A stretch of 35,901 bases of DNA from Candidatus Krumholzibacteriia bacterium (GCA_026387805.1 JAPLKY010000205.1:1-35901); one strand, 5' to 3'. Positions 6,903 through 35,507 are shown, counted from the first letter of the stretch. Notes: a model not told the origin generated them from the sequence alone. Translations and numbers: made by a program.

Positions 6903-8105
6903 ATGAAATGCTGCGCATCTTTGGTGGGGGCGATTCTTCTCTGTGCTTCTTGGGTTTCGTTTTCTTCCGCGGGCGAGGCGACGCAGGACAGCGTCGAGCT
7001 CTCGATCAGGAATGAAGGCCAGACTGCCATAGCGCAAGGGATCGATTGGCTGCTGAAACAGCAGATGCCGGACGGTTCCTGGGGCTCCTATCCGGCGGTG
7101 ACAGCGCTCGCGGTTTCCTCGATTCTGAAGGGTCCTTTCGGATACGATCGGAACAATTCCCTGCAAATCGCGAAGGGTCTCTCGTATATCATGAGCTGCG
7201 TGAAGCCCGATGGTTCGATCGCGATCGACAACATGCCCGGCTACAACACGTCCGTCTGTCTGATGGCCCTGGAGGACGCCGGCGATGAAACCTATCACGA
7301 GACGATTCTCAACGCGCGGAATTTTCTGATTCAGCTCCAGTTCGACGAGAGCGACGGGTATCAGCCCGATAGCTGCTTCTATGGCGGAATCGGCTACGGC
7401 CAGGACGGCCGGCCGGATCTGTCGAACATACAGTGGGCTCTGGAGGCCCTGAAGGCGTCGGAGGATCTTGCGAAGCATTCAGAATTCGACATGAAGCAGA
7501 GGGACGATGCGGCGCCGGCGAACAATCTGCCCACTGCGGGGGAATCGGGAAAAGGGCTCTTCTGGGATAAGGCGATTCTGTTCCTTGAAAGGTGTCAGAA
7601 TCTGAAAAGCGTGAACAAACAGGAATGGGCCGGCGCGGACGGCGGATTCGTCTACTATCCGGATTACAGCAAAGCAGGCGGCACGACGTCCTATGGAAGC
7701 ATGACCTACGCGGGGCTCAAGAGCTTCATCTATGCGGACATCGAAAAGGACGATCCGCGGGTCCAGGCGGCATTCGATTGGATACGAAAGAACTATACCG
7801 TGGATGAGAATCCGGAAATGGGGCTGCAAGGTCTGTATTACTACTACCATACAATGGCCAAGGCGCTCAATGTCTACGGAGACAGTGTAATCCAGGACGA
7901 TAAGGGGGCGATTCATAACTGGAGGGAAGATCTGATCGTAAAACTCTGCTCTCTCCAGAACGAGGAAGGGTATTGGGTAAATTCGAATGGTCGCTGGTGG
8001 GAGAACAACAAGGTGCTCGTGACTTCGTACTGCATTCTCGCGCTGGAAGAAACGCTCGGGCACGGCGGACATTCTGCCACGATGGAGCTGAAGGAGGGCA
8101 ATTGA
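6903..8105 (+). CDS. secreted prenyltransferase/squalene-oxidase-repeat (alpha/alpha toroid) protein, probably non-catalytic
   Basis: ATG 6903 with GGGGGA 7 nt upstream; the track start 6870 is less likely. Signal peptide MKCCASLVGAILLCASWVSFSSAGE. QW-like repeats KQQMPDGSWG, VKPDGSIAI, GADGGFVYY, LQNEEGYWV. No DxDD or DDxxD motif seen. Confidence 0.85.
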   Translation: MKCCASLVGAILLCASWVSFSSAGEATQDSVELSIRNEGQTAIAQGIDWLLKQQMPDGSWGSYPAVTALAVSSILKGPFGYDRNNSLQIAKGLSYIMSCVKPDGSIAIDNMPGYNTSVCLMALEDAGDETYHETILNARNFLIQLQFDESDGYQPDSCFYGGIGYGQDGRPDLSNIQWALEALKASEDLAKHSEFDMKQRDDAAPANNLPTAGESGKGLFWDKAILFLERCQNLKSVNKQEWAGADGGFVYYPDYSKAGGTTSYGSMTYAGLKSFIYADIEKDDPRVQAAFDWIRKNYTVDENPEMGLQGLYYYYHTMAKALNVYGDSVIQDDKGAIHNWREDLIVKLCSLQNEEGYWVNSNGRWWENNKVLVTSYCILALEETLGHGGHSATMELKEGN

Positions 8106-8106
8106 T

Positions 8107-11100
8107 ATGACTCGAAAGAGATTATTTGTAGTCATTGGGTTCGTTTGCCTGATGCTTGTCGGCATCGCAAGTTGGGCTCAAGACATATCTGAAAAGAAGG
8201 CGCTGGATCTTTATGACGAGTATACAATCGCCTTTCCTCCGCCTGTAGAGCCTTTGAACCCTGCTCCATTGATCAGCGAAATGGACAGGCCGGTTCTGCA
8301 AAGTCCTACGGGTGCGATTCTCGTTCGCACGATGCCGAGCAGCTTTGATCCTATTACCGGCTACCCGAAGCCGTATGCATGGCCGACAAGGAACTTCCCC
8401 ATTTGGGGAAATGTCGCGGGAGGGGTCGCTCCGTATACCTATGTATGGAATTTCGGCGACGGTTCGCCGAGTGTAAGCGGCGCTGCGGCAAATCCCAACT
8501 ACATCTATGCATACCACAGCTATAGCATCGTGGGAATATACTATGCGCAGCTCACGGTAACTGATGGAGACGGGGACACGAATTCTTCCGCCGTGCGCAT
8601 CGATGTCGCATTCGTCGATCAGGAGGTTCGCAAGAACGCGGCAATCGAGGACGGCCTTCGATATCTCTATTTGCACCAGGCTGCTAACGGCGCGTGGCAG
8701 GAGAGTTATTATGGTGCTTCTACAGCCACGGCCGTTGCTGCATTTGAGATTCATGGGCATTTTCCCATGAATGATCCCACGCAGGACATCTTTGCCGAAC
8801 GGGTTCAATTGGGTCTCAATTATCTCTTTTCAGCTCTCGTGACCCAGTCTATTGGCGTGCAGACGCATGGAAATCCCGATACCAACGGAAACGGCATCGG
8901 GATTCGTCCCAGCGGCAGTTATACAACGTATATTCATGGCCTCATGATGCTCGCAATAGCGAGCAGCAGAGATACCAATTCGATCACGACAACGGGGCCT
9001 GCCGGCGTTATCGGCAAGAAGTACAGGGATATTCTGGTCGATATGGCAGATCAGCTGGCATATTCTCAGGTCGAAACCGGGGGGCGTGGCGGTTGGAGAT
9101 ACGACATGAATAACGCCGACTATGGAAGCAGCGATAATTCCATTGTGCAATGGGCTTCCATTGGTCTTAAGGCGGCAGAAGCAAGCCCCTGGCTCATTCA
9201 TGCGCCCCAATTTGTGAAAGATGAACTGCTGCTCTGGATGAGTTCTTCGCAATGTGCGGATGGCGGTTTTGGTTACACGAGTTGTTCAGCGTATGGATCC
9301 AACGTGGGGCGCACCGGCTCGGGCATATACTCACTCTACTACCTCGGCGTTGACAAGAGCGATCCTCGGGTTACCGCTGCAATCAATTATCTCTGCTCTC
9401 GGTGGTTTGCAGGAGGTTACGGGGCGACCGCCGGCTCGGGCCAATTTCAATCAAACTTCTATGCCATGTATGCCGTAAAGAAAGCATTAGAAGACTATAT
9501 GATTCCTACAGTATGCAGCCCAAGCCGGAGCTGGAGAGACGATTATGAAAAGCATTTGATAAAAGATCTCACGAGTCCGAGCCCCTATAACGGTAATCAT
9601 CAAACTACGGATACCCCGAATGCAACAAATGATGGCGTCTGGCCATATTCCTACATCTATGGAGGAAACAATTACGGTAATACAATCTCCACTGGATTTG
9701 CTCTTCTCGTGCTTCTGCCGGGCGTAAGGCCGTGCGCGCCGGTACCGCAAATGACAATCAATCCACCTGAGGCATGTCCAAACACGGAAATCTGCTTTGA
9801 TGCGAGCGGCTCGCATCTTGATGGAGCGTGCACGAACGAAGAAATCGAACAGTGGCTATGGGATCTTGATGGCGATGGCACTTATGAAAGGAGCGGCCAG
9901 TTCGTCTGCAAGCCTGAAGGATACCCGCTTCCCAATGGCGAGACGCAGCACGATTACGAAGTGAAGCTCATGGTTATAGCTGGCGAGGCCGACAGCAACG
10001 TTACGTCGGGTACGGTCCATATCGGCTCCGAGGATCATCTGCCCATAGCCGTTTGCGGCGGTCCGTACACGGCGTGCGTGGGCGAGCCGATCTATTTGAA
10101 CGGCTGCCTCTCGTACGACCCCGATTCGGCATGTCTCGATGACGGCATCGTCGAGTACAGCTGGGATTTCGAACCCGATGGAGTCTGGGATCTTATAACA
10201 ACCGAATGCATACCGGACACGAGCCTCATCTACAATACTGAGGTCTATAAGTACATTCAACTTCGCGTGAGAGACAAGTTCGGATTGGTATCCGCTTCGA
10301 ACGGAGGGTTGGTTGAGGTATGGTCATCGCGCAAAGAGCTTTCGGTGACCGCTAATGATATTGTTTTCAATAACGTTGAGGGGTGCCCCTCCGTCGAGAT
10401 CTGCGCGACGATACACGCGGCGACGCAGGATCCATCGATCAGTGTTGAATCCGCGGTTGTGGATTTCTACTACGACGATCCGAGCGATCCCGCGAAACGG
10501 ATCGGGAGATTCAACACGCCGGTAATGCAAGACGGTGGGACGGTTGCATTCTGCGTAAATTGGGAGCCGCCCATCGAAGGGGATAGCATTTATGTGGTGG
10601 TCGATCCCAACCAACTCATCCGTGAGTGCGTCGAGACCGATAACATGGCGGTGAGGGTTTGGAATTGCCCGCCGGACACCTGTGTGGTGCAGCCGAATCT
10701 CTCTTTGATCGGCTATCGCACGGTGGACTATGCCGCCCCGCTGTGGAAGGTGCAGGTCGAGATACGCAACGCCGGCCCCGGGAAGGTTCAAAACGTGAAC
10801 GTGGTCATGAACGAGGAGATCGACTGGTTGACGATTCCGGATCCGAACTGCGGCTATAGCGAGATACTCGAAGGCGGTTTAAGCTGGGGCGACGATACGT
10901 ACACCTTCGATCTGACGAACCACCCGGGAGGGAGCTTCAACGTGTGGTTCGACGTGACGTATGAGGATTCCTGCCGCAATCAGTATCATGTGAGGCTCGA
11001 TCCCGAGTTCGATCCCACGAATACGGCGCAGACGGCGCCGGCGCTGTCCTTCAGGCTGGCGCAGAACTATCCGAACCCGTTCAATCCGAACACGACGATC

Positions 11101-11362: not shown

Positions 11363-14300
11363 ATGAATAGGCGTAATTCGGGATCGGTACTCATCCTGCT
11401 CGTTGTGTTGCTCGCGCTGACGTGCGCGGTCACGGCGCAGGAGCGGATTACGGATCAGAAGGTCAAGAAGCTCTTCGACGAATACCAGGCTCTGACCAGC
11501 TCGCAGCCCGAGATCAATCCGCTTGGATTGAGCGTGCAAGAGGCGTGGAGCCAATTTCAAGCGTTAGACGAGGGGCCTCTCCACGTTCGAGTCATGCCGG
11601 GAACCTACATCGATAGCCAGGGCAAGCGGCAGCCGTATTGCTGGATCGGCCTCAATCAGACCGTGTGGGGCGCCGCGGGAGGCGGAGAAGCTCCCTACTC
11701 CTGGCAATGGGATTTCGGCGATGGTACGCCGCCGGCAACGGGGATTGCGGCAAATGCAAGCGAGGCCAGATATATTGCCGTGGATCATGCATATTCGCTC
11801 GCGGGCACGAGAACCGCGATACTCACGGTGACGGATAATCTCGGCGCGGTGGCGTCGAGATCCGTTCAGATCGATATCAGGGTGCTGCCCGATCCGACAG
11901 TCGATCTCGAGGTAAATGCGGCCATCGAAAAAGGCTTGCGGTGGCTCTATCTGAACCAATACCCGGAGGGTTATTGGCCCGATCAAGGGGACGATTACGT
12001 CTTCGGGGCAACCGGTGCGGCGGTTCTCGCGTTCGAGCTCAGAGGCCACCTTGCCGTTAATGACGTCAATGAGGATATCTATGCCGAACCTCTGCAGCGT
12101 GCGTTCGATTTTCTCATGAACTATTCCGTATACTACACATTGGGAAGTCCGGCATCCCAGAATTGTTTTGTCGATGGAAACTCGAACGGTCTGGGTGTCT
12201 ATTTCTATTCGGGGCTAACATACCATAACGGCCTCATTATGATGGCCATTGCCGCGAGCAGGGATCCGAATCAGGTCGCCACTACCGGAGCCGTCGCCGG
12301 TCACACATTCAGGGATATCCTGCAGGACATGTGCGATATGGCGGTATATGCTCAAGCGGAGAGTCCTCCCTACCGGGGTGGGTGGCGGTACTACGTCGCT
12401 CGGGGCGATGGCGATTCCGACAATTCAGCCGTTCAATGGCCGGTTCTTGCAATGATGGCAGCCGGCTGCGGCTGGGATATTCAGATCCCGGAATGTGTCA
12501 AGACCGAGTTGCGGTTTTGGGCTGAGTACAGTCAGTGCGGGAATGGCGGGTTCGGATACACGAGTCCCTGCGACTGGCCGAATATCGCGAAGACAGGGTC
12601 AGGGATGATCAGCCATGCCTTTCTCGGAACGCTGCCCGGAAACAGCAGCATAGTCAATGCGCTGAATTTCATTAATGCCAACTGGGGTAATGGGAGCGAT
12701 AACAACGGCTATTCCGAGCATCTTAACGGAAACATCTATGCGATGTATGCCTTGACGAAAGGCTGTCGAGAGCTGGTCGATGAAAACGGCGATCAGATTG
12801 ACCTGATTGGCGCGCACAACTGGTACGCGGAGTATCGGCTCCATCTCCTGAGCAATCCGACGTGGGGTCAGGCCGCCGATGGACACTGGTTTGCGCAATT
12901 CGGCTGGTGGTGGGATTTCGGGAGCGCGTTTTCCACGGCGACCGCAATGATGATTCTGAATCCGGAGACCGTTACGTGCCGTCGCCCCGTCGCCGTTGCC
13001 GTAGCCGAGCCGGATTCCAGTTGCGCTAACCAGCCGATCAAATTCGATGGTTCAGGATCGTATCATCAGGATTCGGAGAGGCTCATCACCTCATGGAAGT
13101 GGGACTTCAATGCCGAGGATGGGATTGACTGGGACCATCCGGATGCGGAGGGAGCCAGTGTTTGGAATCTGGCGGGATACGAGCTTCCTCCCGGCGAGGA
13201 CACCAAAGCGTACCAGGCAACCCTCAGGGTTACGGACAACTCCAGCCCGCAACAGGTCAGCGTCGCGACCGTCAGCGTGACGATCGGGACCGTGAATCAC
13301 GCTCCCGTTGCGTGCTTCCACTGTCCGTGCAGCGATGCTCCCTACACGGCGAGGGTCGGTCAGGAGATCATATTCGATGGGAGCTGTTCCTATGACCCGG
13401 ATTTCCTGTGCACCGCCGACAGCATTGTTGCGTGGGCGTGGGATCTCAACGGCGACGGTGTCTTCGACGATGCGACGACGCCTATCACGAGCTTCACGTG
13501 GAACTTCGAGTACAACGGACGCATCGGTCTCAGGGCGTGGGACACCCATGGCGCGCAATCCGAGGGGACCGCTTACGTGAGCGTTTGGACCTCGCACGCG
13601 GATCTGAGAATAGCTGCGGAAGATCTGCATTGCTCCTGCGGCTCATCCCTCGATCCGTGCGCGATAACCGCGCGCGTTCACTGCGACACCGATGATCCAT
13701 CGAAGGTGGTTGCGTCGGCATTGGTCAGGTTCTACGATGGAAATCCGAACGCGGGAGGCGTGCTGATCCATGAGACGACGCTGCAAAACTTGACGGGCGG
13801 CAGCGTCGAAGAGCTGTCGGTACCGTGGGTCAACCCCGATGGGCAGCCGCATGACATCTATGTCCTGGTAGATCCGAATCTGCGGGTGGAGGAGTGGGAC
13901 GAGACGAACAACGTTGCGATTGTCAGTTGCGGTAGAGTGTGCGATGAGCAGCCGAATCTCTCTTTGATCGGCTATCGCACGGTGGACTATGGCGCCCCGC
14001 TGTGGAAGGTGCAGGTCGAGATACGCAACGCCGGGCCGGGATTGGTCAGGAACGTGAACGTGGTCATGAACGAGGAGATCGACTGGTTGACGATTCCCGA
14101 TCCGAACTGCGGCTATAGTGAGATACCGGAGGGCGGATCGAGCTGGGGCGACGATACGTACACCTTCGATCTGACGAACCATCCGGGAGGAAGCTTCAAC
14201 GTGTGGTTCGACGTCACGTACGAGGATTCCTGCGGGAAATCGTACCACGTAAGGCTCGACCCCGAGTTCGATCCCGGGAAGACGGCGCAGACGGCGCCGA

Positions 14301-25272: not shown

Positions 25273-25316
25273 TTCGATAGTGCGCTCCCCAAAATCAAAA
25301 CAGGTAGCCGAGTCGT

Positions 25317-25350
25317 TTGAAGTCACAAATTGCAACTTCAAGTTTGTAAC
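25317..25350. repeat. A-type palindrome copy (TTGAAGT..ACTTCAA + GTTTGTAAC tail), imperfect
   Basis: TTGAAGTCACAAATTGCAACTTCAAGTTTGTAAC. Same family as 28380-28414, 31073-31105, 31556-31590 and 33263-33297. Confidence 0.7.
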
Positions 25351-25361
25351 TTCTTTATCAG

Positions 25362-25405
25362 CAAGGAAAAACAAAGCGAGGTGGCCGCATTTACGACCAC
25401 CTCGC
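25362..25405 (-). terminator. intrinsic terminator formed by a B-type palindrome
   Basis: On the minus strand, the GCGAGGTGG...CCACCTCGC stem (25405-25376) is followed by TTTGTTTTTCC. It lies 57 nt after the ankyrin-MBL stop. Confidence 0.55.
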
Positions 25406-27765: not shown

Positions 27766-28134
27766 CTACTTATCGACTTCTGGATTCTCGGGCAATTCGA
27801 GCAGCTTGATGTCTTCGAGGTCGATGTCGCGGGATGCGGCCCTTTTCGAAGCGATGAGGTCGCTTTTGGAAGCCACATAAAAAGGCTGGCTCTGATACTT
27901 CATGGTTTGACGATTATCCCATGCTTGCCGGAAGCTCAAGCCCGGGGTCGATGTCTGCACATCGATACGAACCTTATCCTTGAAAACCGTGATTTCGTTC
28001 GAGAGGAGCTCTTTTTCGGTTATCAACGTCGCCCTCGGCACGCCGTAGAGAATGGCAGCCACCCCGCCGATCACTACGTACCGCACGTCATGCTTTTGAA
28101 ATGATGCGAATACGTCTTTGAGTCTGTTCAGCAT
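27766..28134 (-). CDS. nucleotidyltransferase-fold protein (MNT/AbiEii-like), catalytic DxD region apparently missing
   Basis: The N-terminus ...HDVRYVVIGGVAAILYGVPRAT is typical of small NTases. However, the expected DxD right after it is replaced by LITEKELLSNE. The tail RIDVQTSTPGLSFRQAW...ASKRAASRDIDLEDIKLL is family-like. Confidence 0.6.
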   Translation of the reverse strand: MLNRLKDVFASFQKHDVRYVVIGGVAAILYGVPRATLITEKELLSNEITVFKDKVRIDVQTSTPGLSFRQAWDNRQTMKYQSQPFYVASKSDLIASKRAASRDIDLEDIKLLELPENPEVDK

Positions 28135-28291
28135 CTTTCTTGTCCGGCAAGTTCGGGTTCAACTCGAGCGCGAGATCCGTGAAGGATACGAAAACATCCA
28201 TCCGTTCCTCGAGGGAGAGCGAGCGAAACCAGAGCGCTTTCGCCTCCGGCGTCTCATCGGCCCGACTATGGGATATCTTGTGGTTCATCAC
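28088..28291 (-). CDS. small partner protein of the NTase-fold gene
   Basis: 67 aa. KALWFRSLSLEERMDVFVSFTDLALELNPNL...KDAEQTQRRIRIISKA resembles small proteins I recall next to such NTases. It overlaps the downstream gene by 47 nt. Confidence 0.5.
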   Translation of the reverse strand: MMNHKISHSRADETPEAKALWFRSLSLEERMDVFVSFTDLALELNPNLPDKKDAEQTQRRIRIISKA

Positions 28292-28344
28292 CCTTGATTA
28301 TACATGCGGGGCCGGTGCGCATAAAGGATTAAAATGATCCGGAC

Positions 28345-28414
28345 GAGGAGGTCACAATTTGTGACCTCCTCCGACCAAACTTGAAGTCACAATATGCAAC
28401 ATCAAGTTTGTAAC
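28345..28414. repeat. composite B+A palindrome unit U1
   Basis: B is GAGGAGGTCACAATTTGTGACCTCCTC (28345-28371). After an 8-nt gap, A is CTTGAAGTCACAATATGCAACATCAAG plus TTTGTAAC (28380-28414). On the minus strand it reads VTNLMLHIVTSSLVGGGHKL*, like the centre of an ORF6N protein. Confidence 0.8.
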
Positions 28415-28441
28415 CCGTAGCGTTAATGGAGGGTTTCTGTT

Positions 28442-28783
28442 CTAGCGCATCGCCTGAAGAATCGTGAGGATCTTCGCCTTGAGGGCGGGGATGTCGCCCG
28501 TGACGGTGAGCCAGACCTGAGAAATCTCGACACCGAAGTAGCCGTGAATGAGCTTGTCGCGCATCCCGGCGACATCCTGCCACGGTATATCGGCATTTGC
28601 CTGACGCAACTCGGGAGAGAGCCGTTTCGCAGCCTCGCCGACGACCTCCAGCTGCCTTATCACCGCATCTTGAATCAAGCTATTGGAGAGAAACGTCTTC
28701 TCGTCGGCGCCGCCCGTGTACTTCTCGATCTTGTCGATGGCGTCGGCGATATGCCGGATATAGACCGAGTCATCACGCTTCAT
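28442..28783 (-). CDS. hepT: HepT-like (DUF86, HEPN) ribonuclease toxin
   Basis: 113 aa. The Rx4HxY motif is RDKLIHGY. An 11-nt overlap with the upstream MNT gene is the typical arrangement. Confidence 0.85.
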   Translation of the reverse strand: MKRDDSVYIRHIADAIDKIEKYTGGADEKTFLSNSLIQDAVIRQLEVVGEAAKRLSPELRQANADIPWQDVAGMRDKLIHGYFGVEISQVWLTVTGDIPALKAKILTILQAMR

Positions 28784-29063
28784 AGATTACCACGAGCTCT
28801 TTCTTGATCCTATCGCGGAGATAGGGACTGATCGCCGCCTCGGTCAAGAGGTCTACCTTGCGGCCGATCGCCGCGGAAAGATCGCGTTCCAGAGCGACGA
28901 ACGCCAGGAGACTTTTCGGGCGCGCAAAAGTCACGAGGACGTCGATGTCGCTCTGATCCGTGGCCTCGCCCCGAACGAACGAGCCGAATATGCCGATCCG
29001 CGTCACGTCGTTCTTCCGGCATATATCGATCAATTTTTGAGATTCAAAAGGCAGCTTGATCAT
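28773..29063 (-). CDS. mntA: MntA-type nucleotidyltransferase antitoxin
   Basis: 96 aa. Motif GIFGSFVRGEATDQSDIDVLV (GSx10-11DxD). Confidence 0.85.
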   Translation of the reverse strand: MIKLPFESQKLIDICRKNDVTRIGIFGSFVRGEATDQSDIDVLVTFARPKSLLAFVALERDLSAAIGRKVDLLTEAAISPYLRDRIKKELVVIYEA

Positions 29064-29204: not shown

Positions 29205-29269
29205 CAATTCTGCCACAGGCCGTGGCAGAATTGCCCCGCCCAATTCTCTCACAGGTTGTGAGAGATTTG
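29205..29269. repeat. two tandem D-type palindromes (D1, D2)
   Basis: D1 is CAATTCTGCCAC-AGGCC-GTGGCAGAATTG (29205-29233, perfect 12-bp arms). D2 is CAATTCTCTCAC-AGGTT-GTGAGAGATTTG (29241-29269, one mismatch). On the minus strand D1 reads ILPRPVAELNGENL, compared with ILSQAVTELDGENL in the intact DUF1016 gene. Confidence 0.8.
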
Positions 29270-29279
29270 CGCCGGATAA

Positions 29280-29500
29280 TTAGGCCTCGCAAGGTTCGAT
29301 ACCAAGAAACTCGAAGCCATAGGGATCACGGACCGTCCAGTTGCCCCGCAGGCATTCCACTTCATAGAATGTACGTTTCAGCTCATCATCGAGATTCACG
29401 ATCAACTCAATATGGCTGTATGAAAGGCCCTGGATGAGCCGCTCTGGCGGGATCTGAAATTGTGGGGACAATGTCCCCACTTTTTCGATATCACTCGCCT
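29280..29500 (-). pseudogene. DUF1016/YhcG fragment (central part with internal deletion, no nuclease domain)
   Basis: Reads EKVGTLSPQFQIPPERLIQGLSYSHIELIVNLDDELKRTFYEVECLRGNWTVR, then jumps to DPYGFEFLGIEP and stops. This is colinear with IPWGHNLQLIFKLKDPARRLWYAQRAVEHGWSRA...DPYVFDFLTM of the intact gene. Confidence 0.6.
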
Positions 29501-29552: not shown

Positions 29553-29579
29553 CTTGATGCTGCAGAATGTGACATCAAG
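29553..29579. repeat. A-type palindrome copy, degenerate (A3)
   Basis: CTTGATG CTGCAGAATGTGA CATCAAG, located 20 nt downstream of the DUF1016 stop. Confidence 0.55.
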
Positions 29580-29599: not shown

Positions 29600-30631
29600 T
29601 TATCTGTCGCGCGATTTTCGAAGCTCCGATTCCAGCTCTTCGACGCTCGGCAGACTCCCTTTCAGGTCCTCGGGCAGCGTCGTCGCCAATCGGTATTCCG
29701 AGACGCCGATAGGCGCGCTCATGTTGCGCAGCGCGTATTCGGCGATGAGCCTCTTCTTCGTGCCGCACAGGACGATTCCTATGGTCGGCTTATCGTCGGG
29801 ATGTTTCAGGGTGTCGTCAACGGCCGCGAGATAGAAGCTCATCTTGCCCGCGTCTTCGGGTTTGAATGCGCCGGCCTTGAGGTCTATCACGACGAAGCAT
29901 CTCAAGCGAAGGTGATAGAAGAGCAGGTCAACGTAGAAATCGTCGCCGGCGACCTCGATATGGTACTGACTGCCGACGAAGGCAAATCCGACACCCAGCT
30001 CCAGCAAGAACTTCCGAATGTGCTCGACGAGCTCTCGCTCGAGATCTCGCTCGGCCGCGTCGGCGGACATCGTCAGGAAATCGAATACATAGGGATCTTT
30101 GATGGCCTGTTTGGCGAGGTCCGATTGAGCAGGCGGCAGAGCCGCGTCGAAGTTGGTCACGGCGCCGCCCTGACGCTCATAGAGCCCCGATTTGATCTGA
30201 TGCACGAGCACCGCCCGGGACCATCCATGCTCCACCGCTCTTTGCGCATACCAGAGGCGGCGGGCAGGATCTTTCAGCTTGAATATCAGTTGGAGATTAT
30301 GGCCCCAGGGGATTTGCTTGATGGCTGGTCGTAGATTCTCGCCGTCCAATTCTGTCACAGCCTGTGACAGAATTGTAACCTCTTCTGTGTAAGCGAGATA
30401 GAAGGCGCGCATCCTCCAGATGTTATTCTGGGAGAATCCGGGAATTCCCGGAAACGCGGCTTGAATATCTGCCGCAAGCCGCTCCACCACGGATTTTCCC
30501 CACCCTTGAAGCTTCTGGCGCTCGACTATCGACCGTCCGATGTGCCAATACAGATCAATCAGCACATGATTGGCCGCCAGGGCAGCTTCAATCCTGGACC
30601 GGGCGATTCTGGTCTTGATCTCTCCCAGCAA
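29600..30631 (-). CDS. DUF1016/YhcG-family PDDEXK nuclease-like protein, probably 5'-clipped
   Basis: 343 aa. LIDLYWHIGRSIVERQ...NIWRMRAFYLAY...IPWGHN...DPYVFDFL...GFAFVGSQYHIEV..DFYVDLLFYHLRLRCFVVIDLK (D..E.K-type core). Only a TTG start with no RBS is available. The frame upstream still reads family-like ...GYGEL until a TGA that abuts palindrome D4. Confidence 0.78.
   Translation of the reverse strand: MLGEIKTRIARSRIEAALAANHVLIDLYWHIGRSIVERQKLQGWGKSVVERLAADIQAAFPGIPGFSQNNIWRMRAFYLAYTEEVTILSQAVTELDGENLRPAIKQIPWGHNLQLIFKLKDPARRLWYAQRAVEHGWSRAVLVHQIKSGLYERQGGAVTNFDAALPPAQSDLAKQAIKDPYVFDFLTMSADAAERDLERELVEHIRKFLLELGVGFAFVGSQYHIEVAGDDFYVDLLFYHLRLRCFVVIDLKAGAFKPEDAGKMSFYLAAVDDTLKHPDDKPTIGIVLCGTKKRLIAEYALRNMSAPIGVSEYRLATTLPEDLKGSLPSVEELESELRKSRDR
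30347..30375. repeat. D-type palindrome inside the DUF1016 coding sequence (D3)
   Basis: CAATTCTGTCAC-AGCCT-GTGACAGAATTG with perfect 12-bp arms. It encodes TILSQAVTEL. Confidence 0.85.
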
Positions 30632-30668
30632 TTCGCCATAACCGGCGGGAAGGCCGGCGATCTCTCCT

Positions 30669-30697
30669 CAATTCTCTCACGGGCCGTGAGAGAATTG
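30669..30697. repeat. D-type palindrome in the ORF6N-DUF1016 intergenic gap (D4)
   Basis: CAATTCTCTCAC-GGGCC-GTGAGAGAATTG, perfect, and identical over 31 nt to D5 at 32469. Confidence 0.85.
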
Positions 30698-30759: not shown

Positions 30760-31329
30760 TTACCGCTGACTCTTGCCCTCGCTTTCAAAGCCGATGCGGC
30801 GCTTGTCCGCCGGCCCGGGCGGCGCCATGAGGCGCTTGATCGCGTCGATTATGGCGACGATCTGTTCGTCGTGGCTCGCGAGCTTGCGCTCGAGCTCTGC
30901 GAGCTTCTCGGCCAGCTCCTTGTGAGTCGCAAGGAATGCCCGCAGGCGAACGAACGCGCGAACGACAAAGACGCTCATTTCGACTGCGCGAGGAGTATTC
31001 AAGACTGAAGCCGCCATTATGGCGCCGTGCTCGGTGAAGGCGTAGGGGAGCTTGCGGCGGCCGCCCCACTCCAATCTTGAAGTTGCAAAATGCAACTTCA
31101 AGATTGTAACTTCTTTGTTTGTAAGGCAAAACGAAAAGTCTGCCGGAAAACGATCCCGGTTTCGACTGACTTGCTGATTGAGCCTCTTAGTCTCGACGCC
31201 GTATAGGTCGGCAAGGTCACTGTCGAGGATGACCTTCTCTCCCCGAATGAGCAGAATCGTACGCTCGATCTTCTCGATCGGGATAATTGGTGAATGAGGA
31301 TCTGTACGCTTGCTGGATTTACTTCCCAT
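30760..31329 (-). CDS. ORF6N (KilA-N-like DNA-binding) domain protein, copy 1
   Basis: ATG 31329 with GGGAGGTGG 6 nt upstream; track ATG 31353 is less likely. LLIRGEKVILDSDLADLYGVETKRLNQQVSRNRDRFPADF...WGGRRKLPYAFTEHGAIMAASVLNTPRAV is the ORF6N signature. C-terminal coiled-coil-like tail. Confidence 0.85.
   Translation of the reverse strand: MGSKSSKRTDPHSPIIPIEKIERTILLIRGEKVILDSDLADLYGVETKRLNQQVSRNRDRFPADFSFCLTNKEVTILKLHFATSRLEWGGRRKLPYAFTEHGAIMAASVLNTPRAVEMSVFVVRAFVRLRAFLATHKELAEKLAELERKLASHDEQIVAIIDAIKRLMAPPGPADKRRIGFESEGKSQR
31073..31105. repeat. perfect 33-nt palindrome inside ORF6N copy 1
   Basis: AATCTTGAAGTTGCA-AAA-TGCAACTTCAAGATT with 15-bp arms. It encodes ILKLHFATSRL. Confidence 0.9.
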
Positions 31330-31365
31330 CCGCCGCCACCTCCCAAACCCCATCGAGCGAAGCAG

Positions 31366-31427
31366 ATGTTATGGCACTAACTCGGAATTGTCAAGAACTG
31401 TGAGGTGGTCACAAATTGTGACCACCT
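31366..31427 (-). promoter_or_regulatory. promoter TTGACA-N17-TAACAT of ORF6N copy 1 with abutting B-type palindrome (candidate operator)
   Basis: On the minus strand: TTGACA (31394-31389), a 17-nt spacer, TAACAT (31371-31366). Palindrome AGGTGGTCACAA-A-TTGTGACCACCT (31403-31427) lies 8 nt upstream of the -35. The same layout occurs at 33191-33255. Confidence 0.6.
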
Positions 31428-31462
31428 AGAATTGTTCTTCCGAAGCCAGTCTCGCTCGCCTT

Positions 31463-31590
31463 CTGATGTTGCAAAATGAAACCTCAAACTTGTAACTTAT
31501 TTGTTCGTAAGGTTCAGCCCGAGGAGGCCGCAATTTGCGGCCACCTCTACGGTCGTTTGATATCACAATTTGTGACATCAAACCCGTAAC
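31463..31590. repeat. degenerate A copy plus composite B+A unit U2
   Basis: A-like CTGATGTTGCAAAATGAAACCTCAAACTTGTAAC (31463-31495). B is GAGGAGGCCGCAATTTGCGGCCACCTC (31521-31547). After an 8-nt gap, A is TTTGATATCACAATTTGTGACATCAAA plus CCCGTAAC (31556-31590). Confidence 0.8.
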
Positions 31591-31612
31591 TCATTGTCCA
31601 TCAATGGGCCGG

Positions 31613-32176
31613 TTATTTCTTTGGCGGCTCTCCGACGATCTCGACCCGCTCCGCGACGACGGTCACCACCGAGACGTAGCTCTTCCCCGTCCGCGCCATC
31701 GTGCTTCGCAATCTCCCGATGTCCCGCTTCGATAGCGAATCCGCCGCGCCCGATTCTCTCTGTCCGCTCACCCACGTGGAATCTTTGCACGGGGTGTTGT
31801 CGATGTGGCAGAGCAGCGCTTTTTCGCTTTCCATCCTGTCTACGTACGAGCTTTCGATGCGGGATTCTTTTGCGATCCCCCGAACTCTGACCATCTTCTT
31901 GTAGAACGATTCGTCGAAGCCGCCGCTCGAATCCCGCGGCACGATCTTGACGATCGCTCCGCCCGCGGTCATGAGCTTCATCTTCCTGCCGTCCACGCCG
32001 CAGAGATGAACAACGAGACCTTCCACCTCGACCCCGGTGTCGCGATATCTGTCGATGTGCGCCACCAGGCTGTCGGCCGGGACCTTTGCGAATGCCGGGC
32101 TCGCCGGCGCGTTGCTGCTGCCGCGGCCCAGCGACAACGCCGCCGCCAAGACGATGATCGAAAGTCCGGTTTTCAT
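31613..32176 (-). CDS. secreted hypothetical protein
   Basis: ATG 32176 (GAGAGGA upstream) gives signal peptide MKTGLSIIVLAAALSLG. The track start 32317 adds an implausible extension. No motif recognised. Confidence 0.65.
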   Translation of the reverse strand: MKTGLSIIVLAAALSLGRGSSNAPASPAFAKVPADSLVAHIDRYRDTGVEVEGLVVHLCGVDGRKMKLMTAGGAIVKIVPRDSSGGFDESFYKKMVRVRGIAKESRIESSYVDRMESEKALLCHIDNTPCKDSTWVSGQRESGAADSLSKRDIGRLRSTMARTGKSYVSVVTVVAERVEIVGEPPKK

Positions 32177-32225
32177 GATCCTCTCGCTTTCGGTTTGCAG
32201 GCGTGTGAAGATCTTCATGCGATCG

Positions 32226-32254
32226 ATTGTATCATACGGGGCAGAAATTGCCAT
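32226..32254 (-). promoter_or_regulatory. possible promoter ATGGCA-N17-(TGa)TACAAT
   Basis: On the minus strand: extended -10 TGATACAAT (32234-32226) and a -35-like ATGGCA (32254-32249). About 30 nt of this segment recur at 33370-33400. Confidence 0.35.
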
Positions 32255-32352
32255 CCCTGCGACAGCATCCGGCAGAGCTCCTACTCCTCCTGCCTCGCCG
32301 GCCAGCGCGTAGTCCACGATGTTCGTGGGAGAACCTGGCCGGCTTGAACCTA

Positions 32353-32414
32353 AAATTGTGGGGACAGTGTCCCCACTTTTTCGAGAGCACGCGCCTTCGC
32401 CGGCAGCAGTGCCG
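32353..32414. repeat. 62-nt repeat with C-type hairpin GTGGGGAC-AGT-GTCCCCAC + T5 (copy 2)
   Basis: The hairpin is at 32358-32376. See 29457-29518. Confidence 0.8.
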
Positions 32415-32433
32415 CATCAAATTTGCGCCGGAT

Positions 32434-32497
32434 AGATCCTTTACGGGCCGTGCAAGTTCTATACAGGGCAATTCTCTCACGGGCCGTGAGAGAATTG
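32434..32497. repeat. tandem D-type palindromes (degenerate D5' + perfect D5)
   Basis: D5' is AGATCCTTTAC-GGGCC-GTGCAAGTTCT (32434-32460, about 7/11 pairs). D5 is CAATTCTCTCAC-GGGCC-GTGAGAGAATTG (32469-32497). Confidence 0.8.
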
Positions 32498-32563
32498 TAA
32501 CCCATTTTGAATATGCCAGATAGAGGGCGCGCATCTTCCATATGCTCTGTCGATCTCGCCGGG

Positions 32564-33154
32564 CTACTTCGTGGGGCCTCCGTTCTTTGAGCGAAACCCG
32601 ATGCGGCGCTTGTCGGGGAGCGCGGGAGCGTCGGGCCGCGCGGGCGGCGCCATGAGACGCTTGATCGCGTCGATAATGGCGACGATCTGTTCGTCATGGC
32701 TCTCGAGCTTGCGCTCGAGCTCGGCGAGCTTTTCGGCCAGCTCCTTGTGAGTCGCAAGGAATGCCCGCAGGCGAACAAAGGCGCGCACAACGAAGACGCT
32801 CATCTCAACGGCGCGCGGCGTATTGAGGACGGAAGCGGCCATGATTGCGCCGTGCTCGGTGAAGGCATAGGGGCACTTCGTTCGACCGCCACGGCCTCCG
32901 TTTGATATCGCAAATTGCGATATCAAAGCTCTAAGCTCTTGTCTCGTAAGCTGAAACATAAAATCATCCGGAAACCGATCGAGGTTTCTGATGACCTGCT
33001 CATTCAATCTTCTGGTCTCCACGCCATAGAGCGCAGCAAGGTCGGCATCAATAATCACCTTCTCGCCTCGAATGAGCAGGATCTTATGCTCGATGCTCTC
33101 TGTGGGAATAATTGACGATTGACGAGCCGATCTCTTGCGGATTCTGTTTCCCAT
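32564..33154 (-). CDS. ORF6N (KilA-N-like DNA-binding) domain protein, copy 2
   Basis: ATG 33154 with GGGAGGTGG upstream. LLIRGEKVIIDADLAALYGVETRRLNEQVIRNLDRFPDDFMFQLT...PYAFTEHGAIMAASVLNTPRAV. The C-terminal 77 aa differ from copy 1 at one residue. Confidence 0.85.
   Translation of the reverse strand: MGNRIRKRSARQSSIIPTESIEHKILLIRGEKVIIDADLAALYGVETRRLNEQVIRNLDRFPDDFMFQLTRQELRALISQFAISNGGRGGRTKCPYAFTEHGAIMAASVLNTPRAVEMSVFVVRAFVRLRAFLATHKELAEKLAELERKLESHDEQIVAIIDAIKRLMAPPARPDAPALPDKRRIGFRSKNGGPTK
32901..32927. repeat. perfect 27-nt palindrome inside ORF6N copy 2
   Basis: TTTGATATCGCAA-A-TTGCGATATCAAA. It encodes ALISQFAIS and occupies the same codon positions as 31073-31105 in copy 1. Confidence 0.9.
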
Positions 33155-33190
33155 CCGCCGCCACCTCCCAAGCCCCATCACGCGAAGCAG

Positions 33191-33255
33191 ATGTTATGGC
33201 ACTAACCGGGAATTGTCAAGCGTTGCGGAGGTTATCGCAAACTGCGACAACCTCC
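33191..33255 (-). promoter_or_regulatory. promoter TTGACA-N17-TAACAT of ORF6N copy 2 with abutting B-type palindrome
   Basis: On the minus strand: TTGACA (33219-33214), a 17-nt spacer, TAACAT (33196-33191). Palindrome GGAGGTTATCGCA-AAC-TGCGACAACCTCC (33227-33255, one mismatch) lies 7 nt upstream of the -35. Confidence 0.6.
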
Positions 33256-33262
33256 GATCCGA

Positions 33263-33297
33263 CTTGAGGTCACAATTTGTGACCTCAAGTTTGTAAC
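33263..33297. repeat. A-type palindrome of composite unit U3
   Basis: CTTGAGGTCACAA-T-TTGTGACCTCAAG (perfect) plus TTTGTAAC, 7 nt from the B palindrome. On the minus strand, the unit (B+A, 33227-33297) reads VTNLRSQIVTSSRIGGCRSLR*. Confidence 0.85.
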
Positions 33298-33399: not shown

Positions 33400-33603
33400 C
33401 TACTCGCGCGAGAGTTTCCGCCCGAGCGCCTTCTCGACGTCCGCGACCTTGCCCGTGAGGCGCCCCGAAGCGCCCTCGCGGTCGTCTGCATGGCGCCGAG
33501 CTTGTACGTGAGCCCCGACTTGTCGATGATGTCGACGATCTCGGCGACATGCTTGCTCAGGGGTTCGCCGACGCCGACGGGAGAGATTGAGAAGCCGGCG
33601 AGC
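33400..33603 (-). pseudogene. MTH1187/YkoF-type (UPF0045) gene copy with 103-nt internal deletion and lost start codon
   Basis: Aligns to 35199-35504. 35286-35388 is missing, and the deletion is bounded by the 8-nt direct repeat CGGTCGTC (35278-35285 and 35381-35388, a single copy at 33479-33486). Homology ends 3 nt before the position of the ATG. Confidence 0.8.
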
Positions 33604-33649
33604 TCTCAAGGTGCGCCATCGAACCACGCCGCTCGTCGCAGCTTTCTTC

Positions 33650-33678
33650 TTGAAATTGCGATGAATGCGCGCTATCCT
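33650..33678 (+). promoter_or_regulatory. possible promoter TTGAAA-N17-TATCCT
   Basis: TTGAAA at 33650-33655 and TATCCT at 33673-33678, about 75 nt upstream of ATG 33754. Confidence 0.35.
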
Positions 33679-33753
33679 CTCCCGCACATCCACCGCGGGG
33701 CTCGCATCGGCGATTTGAACTAACGAACAGTCTGGAACCAAGGGGGAAGAAGT

Positions 33754-35091
33754 ATGCGTGTCTCTCTCGTCGTTGTTCTCTGCTTTGGAATGCTTCTGAT
33801 GTCATGCGGGCAGCAGGAGAAGGCAAAGCAAACGAGCGGGCTTTTTCCTATCAATGCACTGGGTAAGTATGGATTCCTGGATAAGACTGGGAAAACGGTA
33901 ATTCCGCCGCAGTTCGACTCGGCGTCCCCATTTTCGGAGGGACTTGCGCTCGTCAATACGGGGGGCAAATGGGGCTATGTTGATACTCAAGGGAAATATG
34001 TCGTCAATCCTCAGTTCGACGAGGCGAAGGATTTCTCGGATGGCCTGGCGTTGGTCAGGGTCGATAGCAAATGGGGCTATATCGATAAGACCGGAAAGTA
34101 TGTGGTGAATCCTCAGTTCGAAGGAGCAGACGACTTCGCCGAGGGGATGGCGCGCGTGCAGTTCGGCGAACGGAGCGGCTTCATCGATAAGAACGGAAAG
34201 ATGGCGATCAATCCCCAATTCGATTATGCCGGGTCTTTTTCGGAAGGACTTGCTCTTGTGGCCATAGGCCAAAAAGGCGGATATATCGACAAGAAGGGAC
34301 AGGTGGTCATCAATCCGCAGTTTGATCATGCTCGTGAGTTTTCCGAGCAACTTGCGGCCATACTTGTGGGCGAGAGATGGGGATACATCGACCAGAAGGG
34401 GAAGATCATCATCAATCCGCAGTTCGAACAGGCGACGGATTTCTCCGAGAAGCTGGCGGCGGTTGATGTGGGCCATAAGTGGGGCTATATCGACAAGACG
34501 GGCAAAATAGTCATCAATCCTCAATTCGAAAGCGCGAACAAGTTCGCGGACGGTATGGCGCGTGTCGAGATCAACTCGAAATGGGGATATATAGACAAAA
34601 CGGGGAACCTCGTCATCAATCCGCAGTTCCAGAGCGCGCAGGATTTTTCGGATGGACTCGCACTCGCGCAGGGCGACGACTACAGCGGTAATGAATTCGG
34701 CTATATCGACAAGACGGGAAAATTCATCTGGACTCCTCCCGTGCAGATCGGCGGTATCTATTCCGATGTCAAGGCGGATCAGCAGTCAGGAGACGTCACC
34801 GGCACAGGGACATTTCAACTCTATTCGCAGAATGGCAGCTGGACCGGGCAATTTTGCCAGCTCCTGAGCCTGGATGGCAGCACGTACCCCTGGAATCCTC
34901 TGCAGAACGTGGTGGTCAATGAAGGGGATGCGAGCGTTTCGTTTGAAACCCTATGGATTGAGACCAATTTTTCCTTGCCGCGGGACCAGCAACCGACGAA
35001 GTGGCGCAAGGGCAGCGGCATAGCGACGAGAAAAGCGTTGAAAATCAAATGGGAGGGCGATCCGAACGAGTGCTTGTATGAGAAGCGGTAA
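33754..35091 (+). CDS. KWG/WG-containing-repeat lipoprotein
   Basis: AAGGGGGAAG RBS and lipobox LLMSC. About 11 repeats of the ..KWGYIDKTGK.VINPQF..A.DFSEGLA.V pattern (WG_beta_rep type). Confidence 0.88.
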   Translation: MRVSLVVVLCFGMLLMSCGQQEKAKQTSGLFPINALGKYGFLDKTGKTVIPPQFDSASPFSEGLALVNTGGKWGYVDTQGKYVVNPQFDEAKDFSDGLALVRVDSKWGYIDKTGKYVVNPQFEGADDFAEGMARVQFGERSGFIDKNGKMAINPQFDYAGSFSEGLALVAIGQKGGYIDKKGQVVINPQFDHAREFSEQLAAILVGERWGYIDQKGKIIINPQFEQATDFSEKLAAVDVGHKWGYIDKTGKIVINPQFESANKFADGMARVEINSKWGYIDKTGNLVINPQFQSAQDFSDGLALAQGDDYSGNEFGYIDKTGKFIWTPPVQIGGIYSDVKADQQSGDVTGTGTFQLYSQNGSWTGQFCQLLSLDGSTYPWNPLQNVVVNEGDASVSFETLWIETNFSLPRDQQPTKWRKGSGIATRKALKIKWEGDPNECLYEKR

Positions 35092-35198: not shown

Positions 35199-35507
35199 CT
35201 ATTCACGCGAGAGCTTCCGCCCGAGCGCCTTCTCGACGTCCGCGACCTTGCCCGTGAGGCGCCCCGAAGCGCCCTCGCGGTCGTCGATCGCGATGTGCGT
35301 GACCACGCGCTTGGCCTTCGTGCGCATGTGCCGGTGACACTGCAGGATGAGCGCCATGACCTCGGCGTCGCCGCCTTCGACGGTCGTCTGCATGGCGCCG
35401 AGCTTGTACTTGAGCCCCGACCGGTCGATGATGTCGACGATCTCGGCGACGTGCTTGCTCAGGGCTTCGCCGACGCCGACGGGGGAGATTGAGAAGCTGG
35501 CGAGCAT
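35199..35507 (-). CDS. MTH1187/YkoF-family (UPF0045) thiamine-binding-like protein
   Basis: 102 aa. MLASFSISPVGVGEALSKHVAEIVDIIDRSGLKYKLGAMQTTVEG...ALGRKLSRE is a typical family N-terminus (SxxPxG..S.S..VA). Confidence 0.8.
   Translation of the reverse strand: MLASFSISPVGVGEALSKHVAEIVDIIDRSGLKYKLGAMQTTVEGGDAEVMALILQCHRHMRTKAKRVVTHIAIDDREGASGRLTGKVADVEKALGRKLSRE

Follow-up and report, generated by a model that had tools for sequence, protein, structure and literature searches.

A DNA-level palindrome conserved in position and sequence within ORF6N genes

Binding sites that lie inside the gene of their own binder are known from the iterons of lambda ori in gene O and from parS in spo0J/parB, and lacO2 is likewise embedded in lacZ. 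Restriction-modification (R-M) controller (C) proteins with their C-boxes, together with BrxR/CapW, are small dimeric helix-turn-helix (HTH) regulators that use a palindromic site at their own promoter in defence cassettes. The lambda system is reviewed in PMC5043065 and PMC7466680. Another source of symmetry is template switching during replication (quasipalindrome repeats, Ripley model), which homogenises the arms of inverted repeats and reversibly inverts their spacers, coding DNA included (PMC8604942; PMC5941160; PMC7202029), and to which the general conservation of perfect inverted repeats has been ascribed (PMC5941160). The present analysis concerns a stretch of 35,901 nt from Candidatus Krumholzibacteriia bacterium (GCA_026387805.1 JAPLKY010000205.1:1-35901, hereafter the window), in which two genes of the ORF6N family each contain a perfect palindrome; in ORF6N genes, a DNA-level palindrome conserved in both position and sequence is firmly established. 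No description of this element was found in the literature on ORF6N, DUF1016/YhcG and palindromes.

The ORF6N element resembles lambda ori, parS and lacO2 as a dyad-symmetric site in a coding region with further copies nearby, and in its location, with a variable DNA-binding half on the N-terminal side and a conserved half on the C-terminal side; the DUF1016 genes described below have repeated in-frame units. Unlike lambda ori and parS, it has no replication or partition context, its binding is predicted, and its arms are far more symmetric than those of iterons and operators. ORF6N is similar to the C proteins, BrxR and CapW as a small HTH protein, a predicted dimer, heading defence cassettes with a palindrome at its own promoter; ORF6N genes are often located inside type I R-M operons, and DUF1016 and RhuM have been described in R-M context (PMC9881135). 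However, ORF6N is not homologous to these regulators, its site is also present inside the gene, and the regulation is predicted. With template-switch repeats it shares perfect arms, mirrored multi-nucleotide changes, the conservation of perfect repeats and a reversible inversion of the spacer by which one or two amino acids are exchanged; in contrast, the reported repeats are scattered and lineage-specific, whereas the ORF6N palindrome occupies one codon position across phyla, in two frames, with a conserved sequence and satellites.

Both window proteins are ORF6N family members, matching the PF10543 profile over positions 2-86 of 86 (E = 3e-31 and 6e-32) and PADLOC PDC-S05 (E = 1e-49 to 1e-51). 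Their palindromes stand where the first-pass annotation of this DNA had placed them, on the coding (minus) strand and inside the Pfam ORF6N domain. The palindrome of gene 1, CAATCTTGAAGTTGCA-AAA-TGCAACTTCAAGATTG, is perfect as had been claimed, but its extent, given as 31073-31105, is really 31072-31106 (16+3+16); that of gene 2 is TTTGATATCGCAA-A-TTGCGATATCAAA (13+1+13). About 14 distinct perfect hairpins with arms of at least 9 nt are present in the window versus about one in window shuffles, and all but three are located within 28.3-33.3 kb. Some 15 more palindromes of these kinds, located between genes or within gene remnants, had escaped the annotation, as had the palindrome of the neighbouring DUF1016 gene (30347-30375) and the family-wide occurrence. 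From PYAFTEHG onward 76 of 77 residues are the same in the two proteins, exactly as counted before, and 23 of 231 nt differ downstream of the palindrome, near the earlier figure of 24 in 210; the N-terminal halves are 64% identical, within the 60-65% previously estimated, and an omega of 0.02 for the C-terminal half agrees with the strong purifying selection that had been proposed. The synonymous divergence (dS) between the genes is 1.39 on the N-terminal side of the palindrome and 0.52 on the C-terminal side; thus, the sharp contrast between the halves also reflects separate histories on either side of it.

The 80 ORF6N loci compared were taken from one-genome-per-species collections and span Acidobacteriota, Pseudomonadota, Planctomycetota, Verrucomicrobiota, Bacteroidota, Chloroflexota, Cloacimonadota and others, with very distant ORF6N members under-sampled because homologues were gathered via conserved C-terminal peptide patterns. 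In almost all of them the palindrome is found at the same codons, just before the GGRR...PYAFTE segment, with the consensus TTTGAGGTCRCAA-W-TTGYGACCTCAAA, and about 90% of 74 homologues have at least 11 of 12 arm positions paired. When synonymous codons are resampled for the same peptides (74 distinct segments), the pairs at distances 2-13 from the centre fall from 11.3 of 12 to 4.7 (sd 1.6), and the full 12 pairs seen in 55% of segments are reached in none of 14,800 resamples. In the 86-segment alignment, from which four mis-anchored segments were left out, 95.6% of cells are paired versus 80.1% in column shuffles (0 of 500 reach the observed value) and 30-42% in slid registers, and cells changed on both sides number 142 versus 29.5 in the shuffles, a control that ignores phylogeny.

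The wobble positions of one arm pair with second codon positions of the other and consequently the amino acids co-vary, as for Ser TCA/Val GTG, Ser TCG/Ala GCG, Arg AGG/Thr ACC and Met ATG/Thr ACA. Most tellingly, the core GGTCGCAAATTGCGACC is also present in the EVVANCDHL subfamily but is read there in a frame shifted by one base from that of the LRSQIATS subfamily, which argues that it is the DNA, and not the peptide, that is conserved. Peptide and codon usage as the cause are ruled out by the synonymous resampling and by this frame-shifted subfamily, and the earlier suggestion that symmetry is kept at the nucleic-acid level holds on the pair counts, the two-sided changes and the two frames. 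The ORF6N genes provide a clear-cut natural case of a coding sequence and a DNA element locked together over very long evolutionary times, in which the DNA is kept through a frame change while arm copying and centre flipping dictate the amino acids.

Further ORF6N palindromes are found on plasmids of cultured bacteria: 12+1+12 in Bacteroides ovatus, 13+1+13 in Treponema saccharophilum (where the gene lies between hsdM and hsdS), 11+3+11 in Legionella pneumophila (ANCD class), 7+3+7 in Legionella oakridgensis, and one with a single mismatch in Sulfuricurvum; cultured phages gave almost no ORF6N matches of this subfamily. On two Legionella plasmids (L232, L235) the ORF6N gene adjoins a tyrosine recombinase/integrase gene, and the ORF6N genes of L013 and L003 contain an additional in-frame hairpin.

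The centre of the palindrome occurs in both orientations: among the ORF6N central 7-mers CAAATTG (26) is accompanied by its reverse complement CAATTTG (22), CATTTTG (6) by CAAAATG (4), and CAAACTG (5) by CAGTTTG (3), the centre base being A in 38 cases, T in 35, G in 2 and C in 1. As a consequence, chemically unrelated residues toggle at the flipped centre (Gln-Ile or Gln-Phe; His-Phe or Gln-Asn). In Escherichia coli a free-standing copy downstream of yhcG has its centre flipped between strains while the surrounding 90 nt are identical, and in one strain a mirrored G..C to C..G arm change is present as well. One-sided changes of the G-U type number 4, versus 142 two-sided changes, and no excess of wobble mismatches is observed in coding copies, free-standing copies or DUF1016 units, GT being no commoner than AC.

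It is firmly established that the palindrome evolves by arm copying and centre flipping, with the mirrored arm changes and both spacer orientations of an inverted repeat homogenised by template switching. Since the flips and the mirrored changes match the published signatures, templated mutation, rather than a series of selected compensatory substitutions, is the simplest account of the arm-for-arm covariation. Mirrored arm changes had been taken as a sign that the symmetry is selected: the symmetry is conserved, but the centre flip-flop and the double change in E. coli indicate that mirroring alone is no proof of selected pairing. In general, textbook "compensatory covariation" can come from a mutational mechanism rather than from selection for pairing. 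Of the roles first suggested for the element, it may still serve as a dimeric-protein site or as a DNA hairpin or cruciform.

An unbiased scan of the 80 loci returned 48 more ORF6N-type palindromes outside the internal site; of the 56 free copies detected by a motif-based scan, 46 precede the gene and 10 follow it. In many Acidobacteria the free copy ends 2-8 nt before the ribosome-binding site, and in the window the TTGACA-17-TAACAT ahead of each ORF6N gene begins 7-8 nt after an X-type copy (outer arms GGTGG), promoter calls being consensus matches only. The half-site profile of non-coding copies is base by base that of coding copies, including the CAAWTTG centre, across phyla; perfect copies represent 55% of the internal and 32% of the free ones. 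In Butyrivibrio the internal copy is lost and a perfect 14+1+14 palindrome with the same centre is kept 15 nt upstream of the start codon. The ORF6N and DUF1016 genes of the window lineage also have a shared leader module (X hairpin, TTGACA-17-TAACAT, GGAGG and the first ~17-20 codons, MGSKSSKRTDPHSSIVP), located at 31279-31427 and 33134-33255 of the window and at 7601-7750, 9986-10051 and 13535-13600 of a related contig (L144), which appears to have been exchanged between unrelated genes.

The DUF1016 gene of the window belongs to the DUF1016/YhcG family of PD-(D/E)XK nucleases, with both domains present (PF17761 and PF06250, E = 2e-42 and 9e-66; PADLOC PDC-S02, E = 7e-146). DUF1016 genes are enriched in R-M loci (PMC9881135), and ORF6N (PDC-S05) and DUF1016 (PDC-S02) are both PADLOC candidate defence genes. 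Of 80 metagenomic DUF1016 homologues, 75 have one or more perfect palindromes (arms of at least 8 nt) in the linker between MRAFY and PWGH, and 92 of the 126 palindromes in 189 kb fall in the ~330-nt linker region, both counts being position-based. The unit, AATTCT-NNNN-CAG-S-CTG-NNNN-AGAATT, is present in 1-4 in-frame repeats with a period of 36 nt, and its 4-nt block varies freely yet is always complementary. Tandem units give peptide repeats such as KVPQPVGQLDVP (P0124; L185, L192). The DUF1016/YhcG array is analogous to the ORF6N palindrome but different, and probably obeys the same logic; the findings point to one kind of cis element in two very abundant, uncharacterised defence-island families, PDC-S05 and PDC-S02. 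An obligate ORF6N-DUF1016 pair was rejected as an explanation, a DUF1016 gene lying within 1.5 kb downstream in only 1 of 80 ORF6N loci.

In E. coli K-12 yhcG contains three units of the DUF1016 type (best 15+3+15), and free copies are located 16 nt past its stop codon and just after gltD; consequently binding, cruciform formation, template switching and recombination are testable in a model organism. Among E. coli alleles the yhcG linker has 45-68% identity versus 92-100% in the remaining gene. A yhcG-type palindrome is found at a median of 3 places per genome and at none on plasmids; a REP/RAYT-like dispersed family is ruled out by this copy number, and the window copies all adjoin the two gene families. 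In K-12 (L081) near-identical free palindromes, GAATTC(G/T)(C/G)CAGAC...GTCTG..GAATC, at 2640-2665 and 10971-10995 flank gltF-yhcADEF-yhcG, of which the gltF-yhcADEF part is absent from E. coli B, O157:H7 F1273, AR_0077 and 2002-3211; the outer arms AATTCTG...CAGAATT of these bracketing palindromes match the DUF1016 units of the distant Krumholzibacteria window.

That the palindromes act as rearrangement breakpoints is firmly established, and fragility together with a common core accounts for it. The island at 25.3-33.3 kb consists of toxin-antitoxin and defence-type cassettes between chromosomal genes, and L144 has the same flanks with a different cassette order, homology blocks switching exactly at palindromes. 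In L144 a 266-nt ORF6N 5' half ends in its own hairpin and is directly followed by an X hairpin, a promoter and a complete ORF6N gene, and a DUF1016 5' part stops at its own hairpin; the same 266-nt half is still attached to the L144 counterpart of the Y-type copy at 33262-33290. In the window the DUF1016 leader is lost at a hairpin (30667/30669), and the dS difference between the ORF6N paralogues fits this picture. Partial matches to yhcG across the E. coli pangenome stop at query position 406 or start at 385, both inside the palindrome 378-410; one truncation is a replacement in the E. coli B lineage, the other an insertion of the insertion sequence (IS) IS1 in the left arm with an adjacent deletion, the breakpoint evidence in E. 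coli thus comprising at least two independent events. The palindromes therefore mark where defence islands break and reassemble. The DUF1016 open reading frame (ORF) of the window (29600-30667) has a TTG start and is 39 residues shorter than a 96%-identical homologue; since its leader is replaced by a hairpin, the gene may be dependent on read-through from ORF6N gene 1, or inactive.

Table 1. Palindromes, genes and promoter-like sequences of the window.
Feature	Position	Strand	Remarks
ORF6N gene 1	30760..31329	-	likely start MGSKSS at 31329 after GGAGG ribosome-binding site; ORF open to 31353
Perfect palindrome 16+3+16 in ORF6N gene 1	31072..31106		encodes TILKLHFATSRL; peptide ILKLHFATSRL
Promoter-like TTGACA-17-TAACAT, gene 1	31366..31394	-	8 nt downstream of palindrome 31403-31427; leader conserved in L144
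Free-standing perfect X-type palindrome AGGTGGTCACAA-A-TTGTGACCACCT, outer arms GGTGG	31403..31427		just upstream of gene 1 promoter
Decayed ORF6N fragment: imperfect hairpin and LTNKxVT-coding flank	31464..31512		74% identical to 31051-31126
Hairpin doublet	31521..31582		X 31521-31547 (1 mismatch); Y 31556-31582 (1 mismatch, resembles gene 2 palindrome)
ORF6N gene 2	32564..33154	-	likely start ATG 33154-33152 (MGNRIRK); ORF open to 33181
Perfect palindrome 13+1+13 in ORF6N gene 2	32901..32927		encodes LISQFAISN
Promoter-like TTGACA-17-TAACAT, gene 2	33191..33219	-	7 nt downstream of palindrome 33227-33255
Free-standing X-type palindrome, one mismatch, GGAGGTTATCGCAAACTGCGACAACCTCC	33227..33255		just upstream of gene 2 promoter
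Free-standing perfect 14+1+14 Y-type palindrome ACTTGAGGTCACAATTTGTGACCTCAAGT, then TTGTAAC	33262..33290		remnant: end of truncated ORF6N 5' half
Hairpin doublet upstream of 67-aa/DUF6036 operon	28345..28408		perfect X 28345-28371 and decayed Y; 76% identical to 33228-33297
ORF6N remnant: imperfect Y hairpin with DKEVTNLKLQFVTSN reading and imperfect X hairpin	25316..25403		beyond ankyrin gene
Decayed ORF6N-type hairpin remnant	29553..29579		downstream of DUF1016 gene
DUF1016/YhcG nuclease gene	29600..30631	-	5'-truncated relative to 382-aa homologues, their leader absent
Perfect 14+1+14 palindrome in DUF1016 gene	30347..30375		encodes TILSQAVTEL
Free-standing DUF1016-type perfect palindrome	30669..30697		exactly at junction of missing DUF1016 leader
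DUF1016-type perfect palindrome	32469..32497		ends 76-nt DUF1016 fragment 32469-32544; homology stops at palindrome edge
Two adjacent DUF1016-type palindromes	29205..29265		remnant of a DUF1016 linker with several units (compare P0124)
GTGGGGACA-A-TGTCCCCAC palindrome in decayed DUF1016 paralogue	29462..29480		second copy 32358-32376

The explanation that is tentatively favoured is an ancient DNA-level palindrome that is integral to ORF6N genes, and neither an mRNA structure nor a by-product of the peptide. It can be outlined in four steps. Firstly, as visible in the alignments, the consensus palindrome occupies a single site of the ORF6N domain across phyla and survives a change of frame, at a structurally tolerant place, the end of a helix and a floppy Gly/Arg loop. 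Secondly, and well supported by the mutational signature, complementarity is maintained chiefly by fold-back during replication, in which one arm is the template for the other and the centre is flipped; the protein simply follows (QI to QF, HF to QN, and back). Thirdly, the sequence itself, beyond its symmetry, may be under selection as the cognate binding site of the ORF6N protein, a putative winged-helix protein with a long dimerising helix, so that the internal copy and those at the promoter or ribosome-binding site could mediate autoregulation of the gene and of its downstream cargo. Finally, as seen in the rearrangements, these fragile palindromes with a common core are breakpoints at which the ORF6N and DUF1016 cassettes of defence-type islands are truncated, fused and reshuffled.

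Our best guess for the third step, retention as the predicted binding site of a dimeric ORF6N protein embedded in its own gene, is inferred from sequence and a structural model, and is favoured because of the conserved non-coding copies, the promoter-proximal bias and the invariant recognition helix. The model of ORF6N comprises two strands, an HTH, a helix with its end encoded in the left arm, a Gly/Arg loop that is disordered and a helix of 55 residues; a fold search with it gave weak winged-helix and MerR-like structural neighbours only, and no solved homologue was found by sequence search. Across the family the recognition helix RLNEQVxRN hardly varies, and neither does the inner core of the palindrome.

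Several observations weigh against a binding site. The window contains about 10 arm variants but two ORF6N proteins, and a specific arm variant shared by upstream and internal copies was rejected, the match at the same locus being marginally above random pairs (p = 0.04). Many ORF6N loci, for example L136, lack a free-standing copy, and operators do not usually keep one codon position across such distances. Base pairing or templated copying, but not protein contacts, would predict the covariation seen in the outer arms and in the variable 4-nt block of DUF1016. Moreover, units within one DUF1016 gene differ in sequence, and to our knowledge no sequence-specific DNA binding has been described for the DUF1016 nuclease. 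A functionless palindrome that does no more than perpetuate itself could also account for most of the data.

Such a palindrome is the main rival, ranked above a selected recombination site and an RNA hairpin, and is judged rather unlikely: it would have arisen once per family in a structurally tolerant linker; template switching would mend mismatches far faster than point mutation makes them, preventing decay; and coupled codon sets would slow drift, the free copies being debris of rearrangements caused by the palindrome. The centre flip-flop with its mirrored changes, the lack of wobble pairs, the location in low-confidence or linker regions (ORF6N model; DUF1016 linker), the in-frame tandem expansion of the 36-nt unit to 1-4 units, the genes truncated at palindromes, the weak match of upstream and internal arms, and the general upkeep of perfect inverted repeats by template switching (PMC5941160) are all consistent with it. 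However, the feature is shared by two unrelated families of the same genomic niche, while long perfect palindromes are rare in the other window genes; free copies are less perfect than coding ones and several are badly decayed, which indicates that drive alone does not keep perfection; and the non-coding copies retain the profile and the centre across phyla, with a strong upstream, promoter-proximal bias (46 versus 10).

Compared with the binding-site reading, it is doubtful that the palindromes are selected recombination sites, i.e., hairpin or cruciform junctions of a cassette-shuffling system, functionally akin to integron attC sites or Xer-dependent dif modules, served by a host factor or by the DUF1016 PD-(D/E)XK nuclease. 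Module boundaries in the window and L144 coincide with palindromes, hairpins are located between co-oriented cassettes right after one stop codon and before the next ribosome-binding site, ORF6N and DUF1016 genes have an exchangeable common leader, tandem ORF6N genes with intervening cargo recur, PADLOC lists both families as defence candidates, and dS is discontinuous across the palindrome. In contrast, neither the window nor L144 contains a recombinase or integrase, an ordinary IS1 insertion with adjacent deletion accounts for one of the two E. coli events, no palindrome is located at the right-hand junction of the E. coli B replacement, and fragility with a 15-27-nt shared core suffices for breakpoints. 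Integron attC sites, REP/BIME and Rickettsia palindromic elements are comparable as hairpin repeats at cassette boundaries or in frame and as IS or rearrangement hotspots; unlike these, the ORF6N/DUF1016 palindromes occur in two families at a homologous position and are neither promiscuously inserted nor dispersed. The features of attC are absent as well, the palindromes being perfect and bulge-free, without extrahelical bases, and flanked by GTTACAA and not by the GTTRRRY core, with no integrase in either contig. Even more doubtful is the wider proposal that ORF6N and DUF1016/YhcG are parts of an unrecognised hairpin-based cassette system, in which the intragenic palindromes, as hairpins or cruciforms, would be the junctions for an exchange of promoter-leader modules, N-terminal halves and cargo that needs no integron integrase, and YhcG would possibly be the structure-specific enzyme.

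An mRNA hairpin, internal and at the 5' end, controlling stability, translation or RNase III processing is very improbable although the upstream copy abuts the ribosome-binding site in several Acidobacteria and may begin the transcript, and although the same hairpin with flanking A/T runs is an intergenic terminator in some phage contigs, since G-U pairs are almost absent and GT is no commoner than AC, the loop is found about as often in one orientation as in the other, which makes no difference to double-stranded DNA but does to RNA, pairing is kept up to the very centre, where an RNA loop could not pair, the upstream copies of the window sit upstream of the -35, and Rfam has no matching family; the mRNA structure offered by the first-pass annotation is accordingly disfavoured. 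The G-U tolerance and the loop orientation fixed relative to the transcript that characterise structured RNA are thus lacking, and the only Rfam match is a spurious sub-threshold mir-290 (25 bits versus a gathering score of 51) at window 29447-29494, corresponding to the GTGGGGACA-A-TGTCCCCAC hairpin. The gene strand has no T run after the hairpins, as an intrinsic terminator would require, and a terminator scan flags 31072-31106 on the antisense strand only.

The exact 21-mer GAGGTCRCAAWTTGYGACCTC with flanking A and T runs forms a terminator-like hairpin between phage structural genes in L083, L087, L090 and some 35 further viral contigs, away from any ORF6N gene; these ordinary intergenic terminators, which may be exaptation or, in view of how many terminators the collection contains, coincidence, were not used as evidence for the element. 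In Syntrophorhabdus (L136-L143) the genes for a 23S-rRNA-IVS protein and for an RNase T-like exonuclease stand between two ORF6N genes, and cas3 and cse1 of a type I-E CRISPR-Cas locus follow directly downstream. In the window, region 27766-29063 encodes a DUF6036 nucleotidyltransferase with a 67-aa partner and an MNT gene (PADLOC PDC-S09) overlapping an adjacent 113-aa ORF, a putative HepT with no PADLOC hit; ORF6N-type hairpin doublets separate the two units. Further along, the 3' part of a gene for a thiamine-binding protein (PF01910) is duplicated (33400-33741 versus 35199-35507) on both sides of a WG-repeat gene (33754-35091), whose absence from L144 suggests an insertion with flanking duplication.

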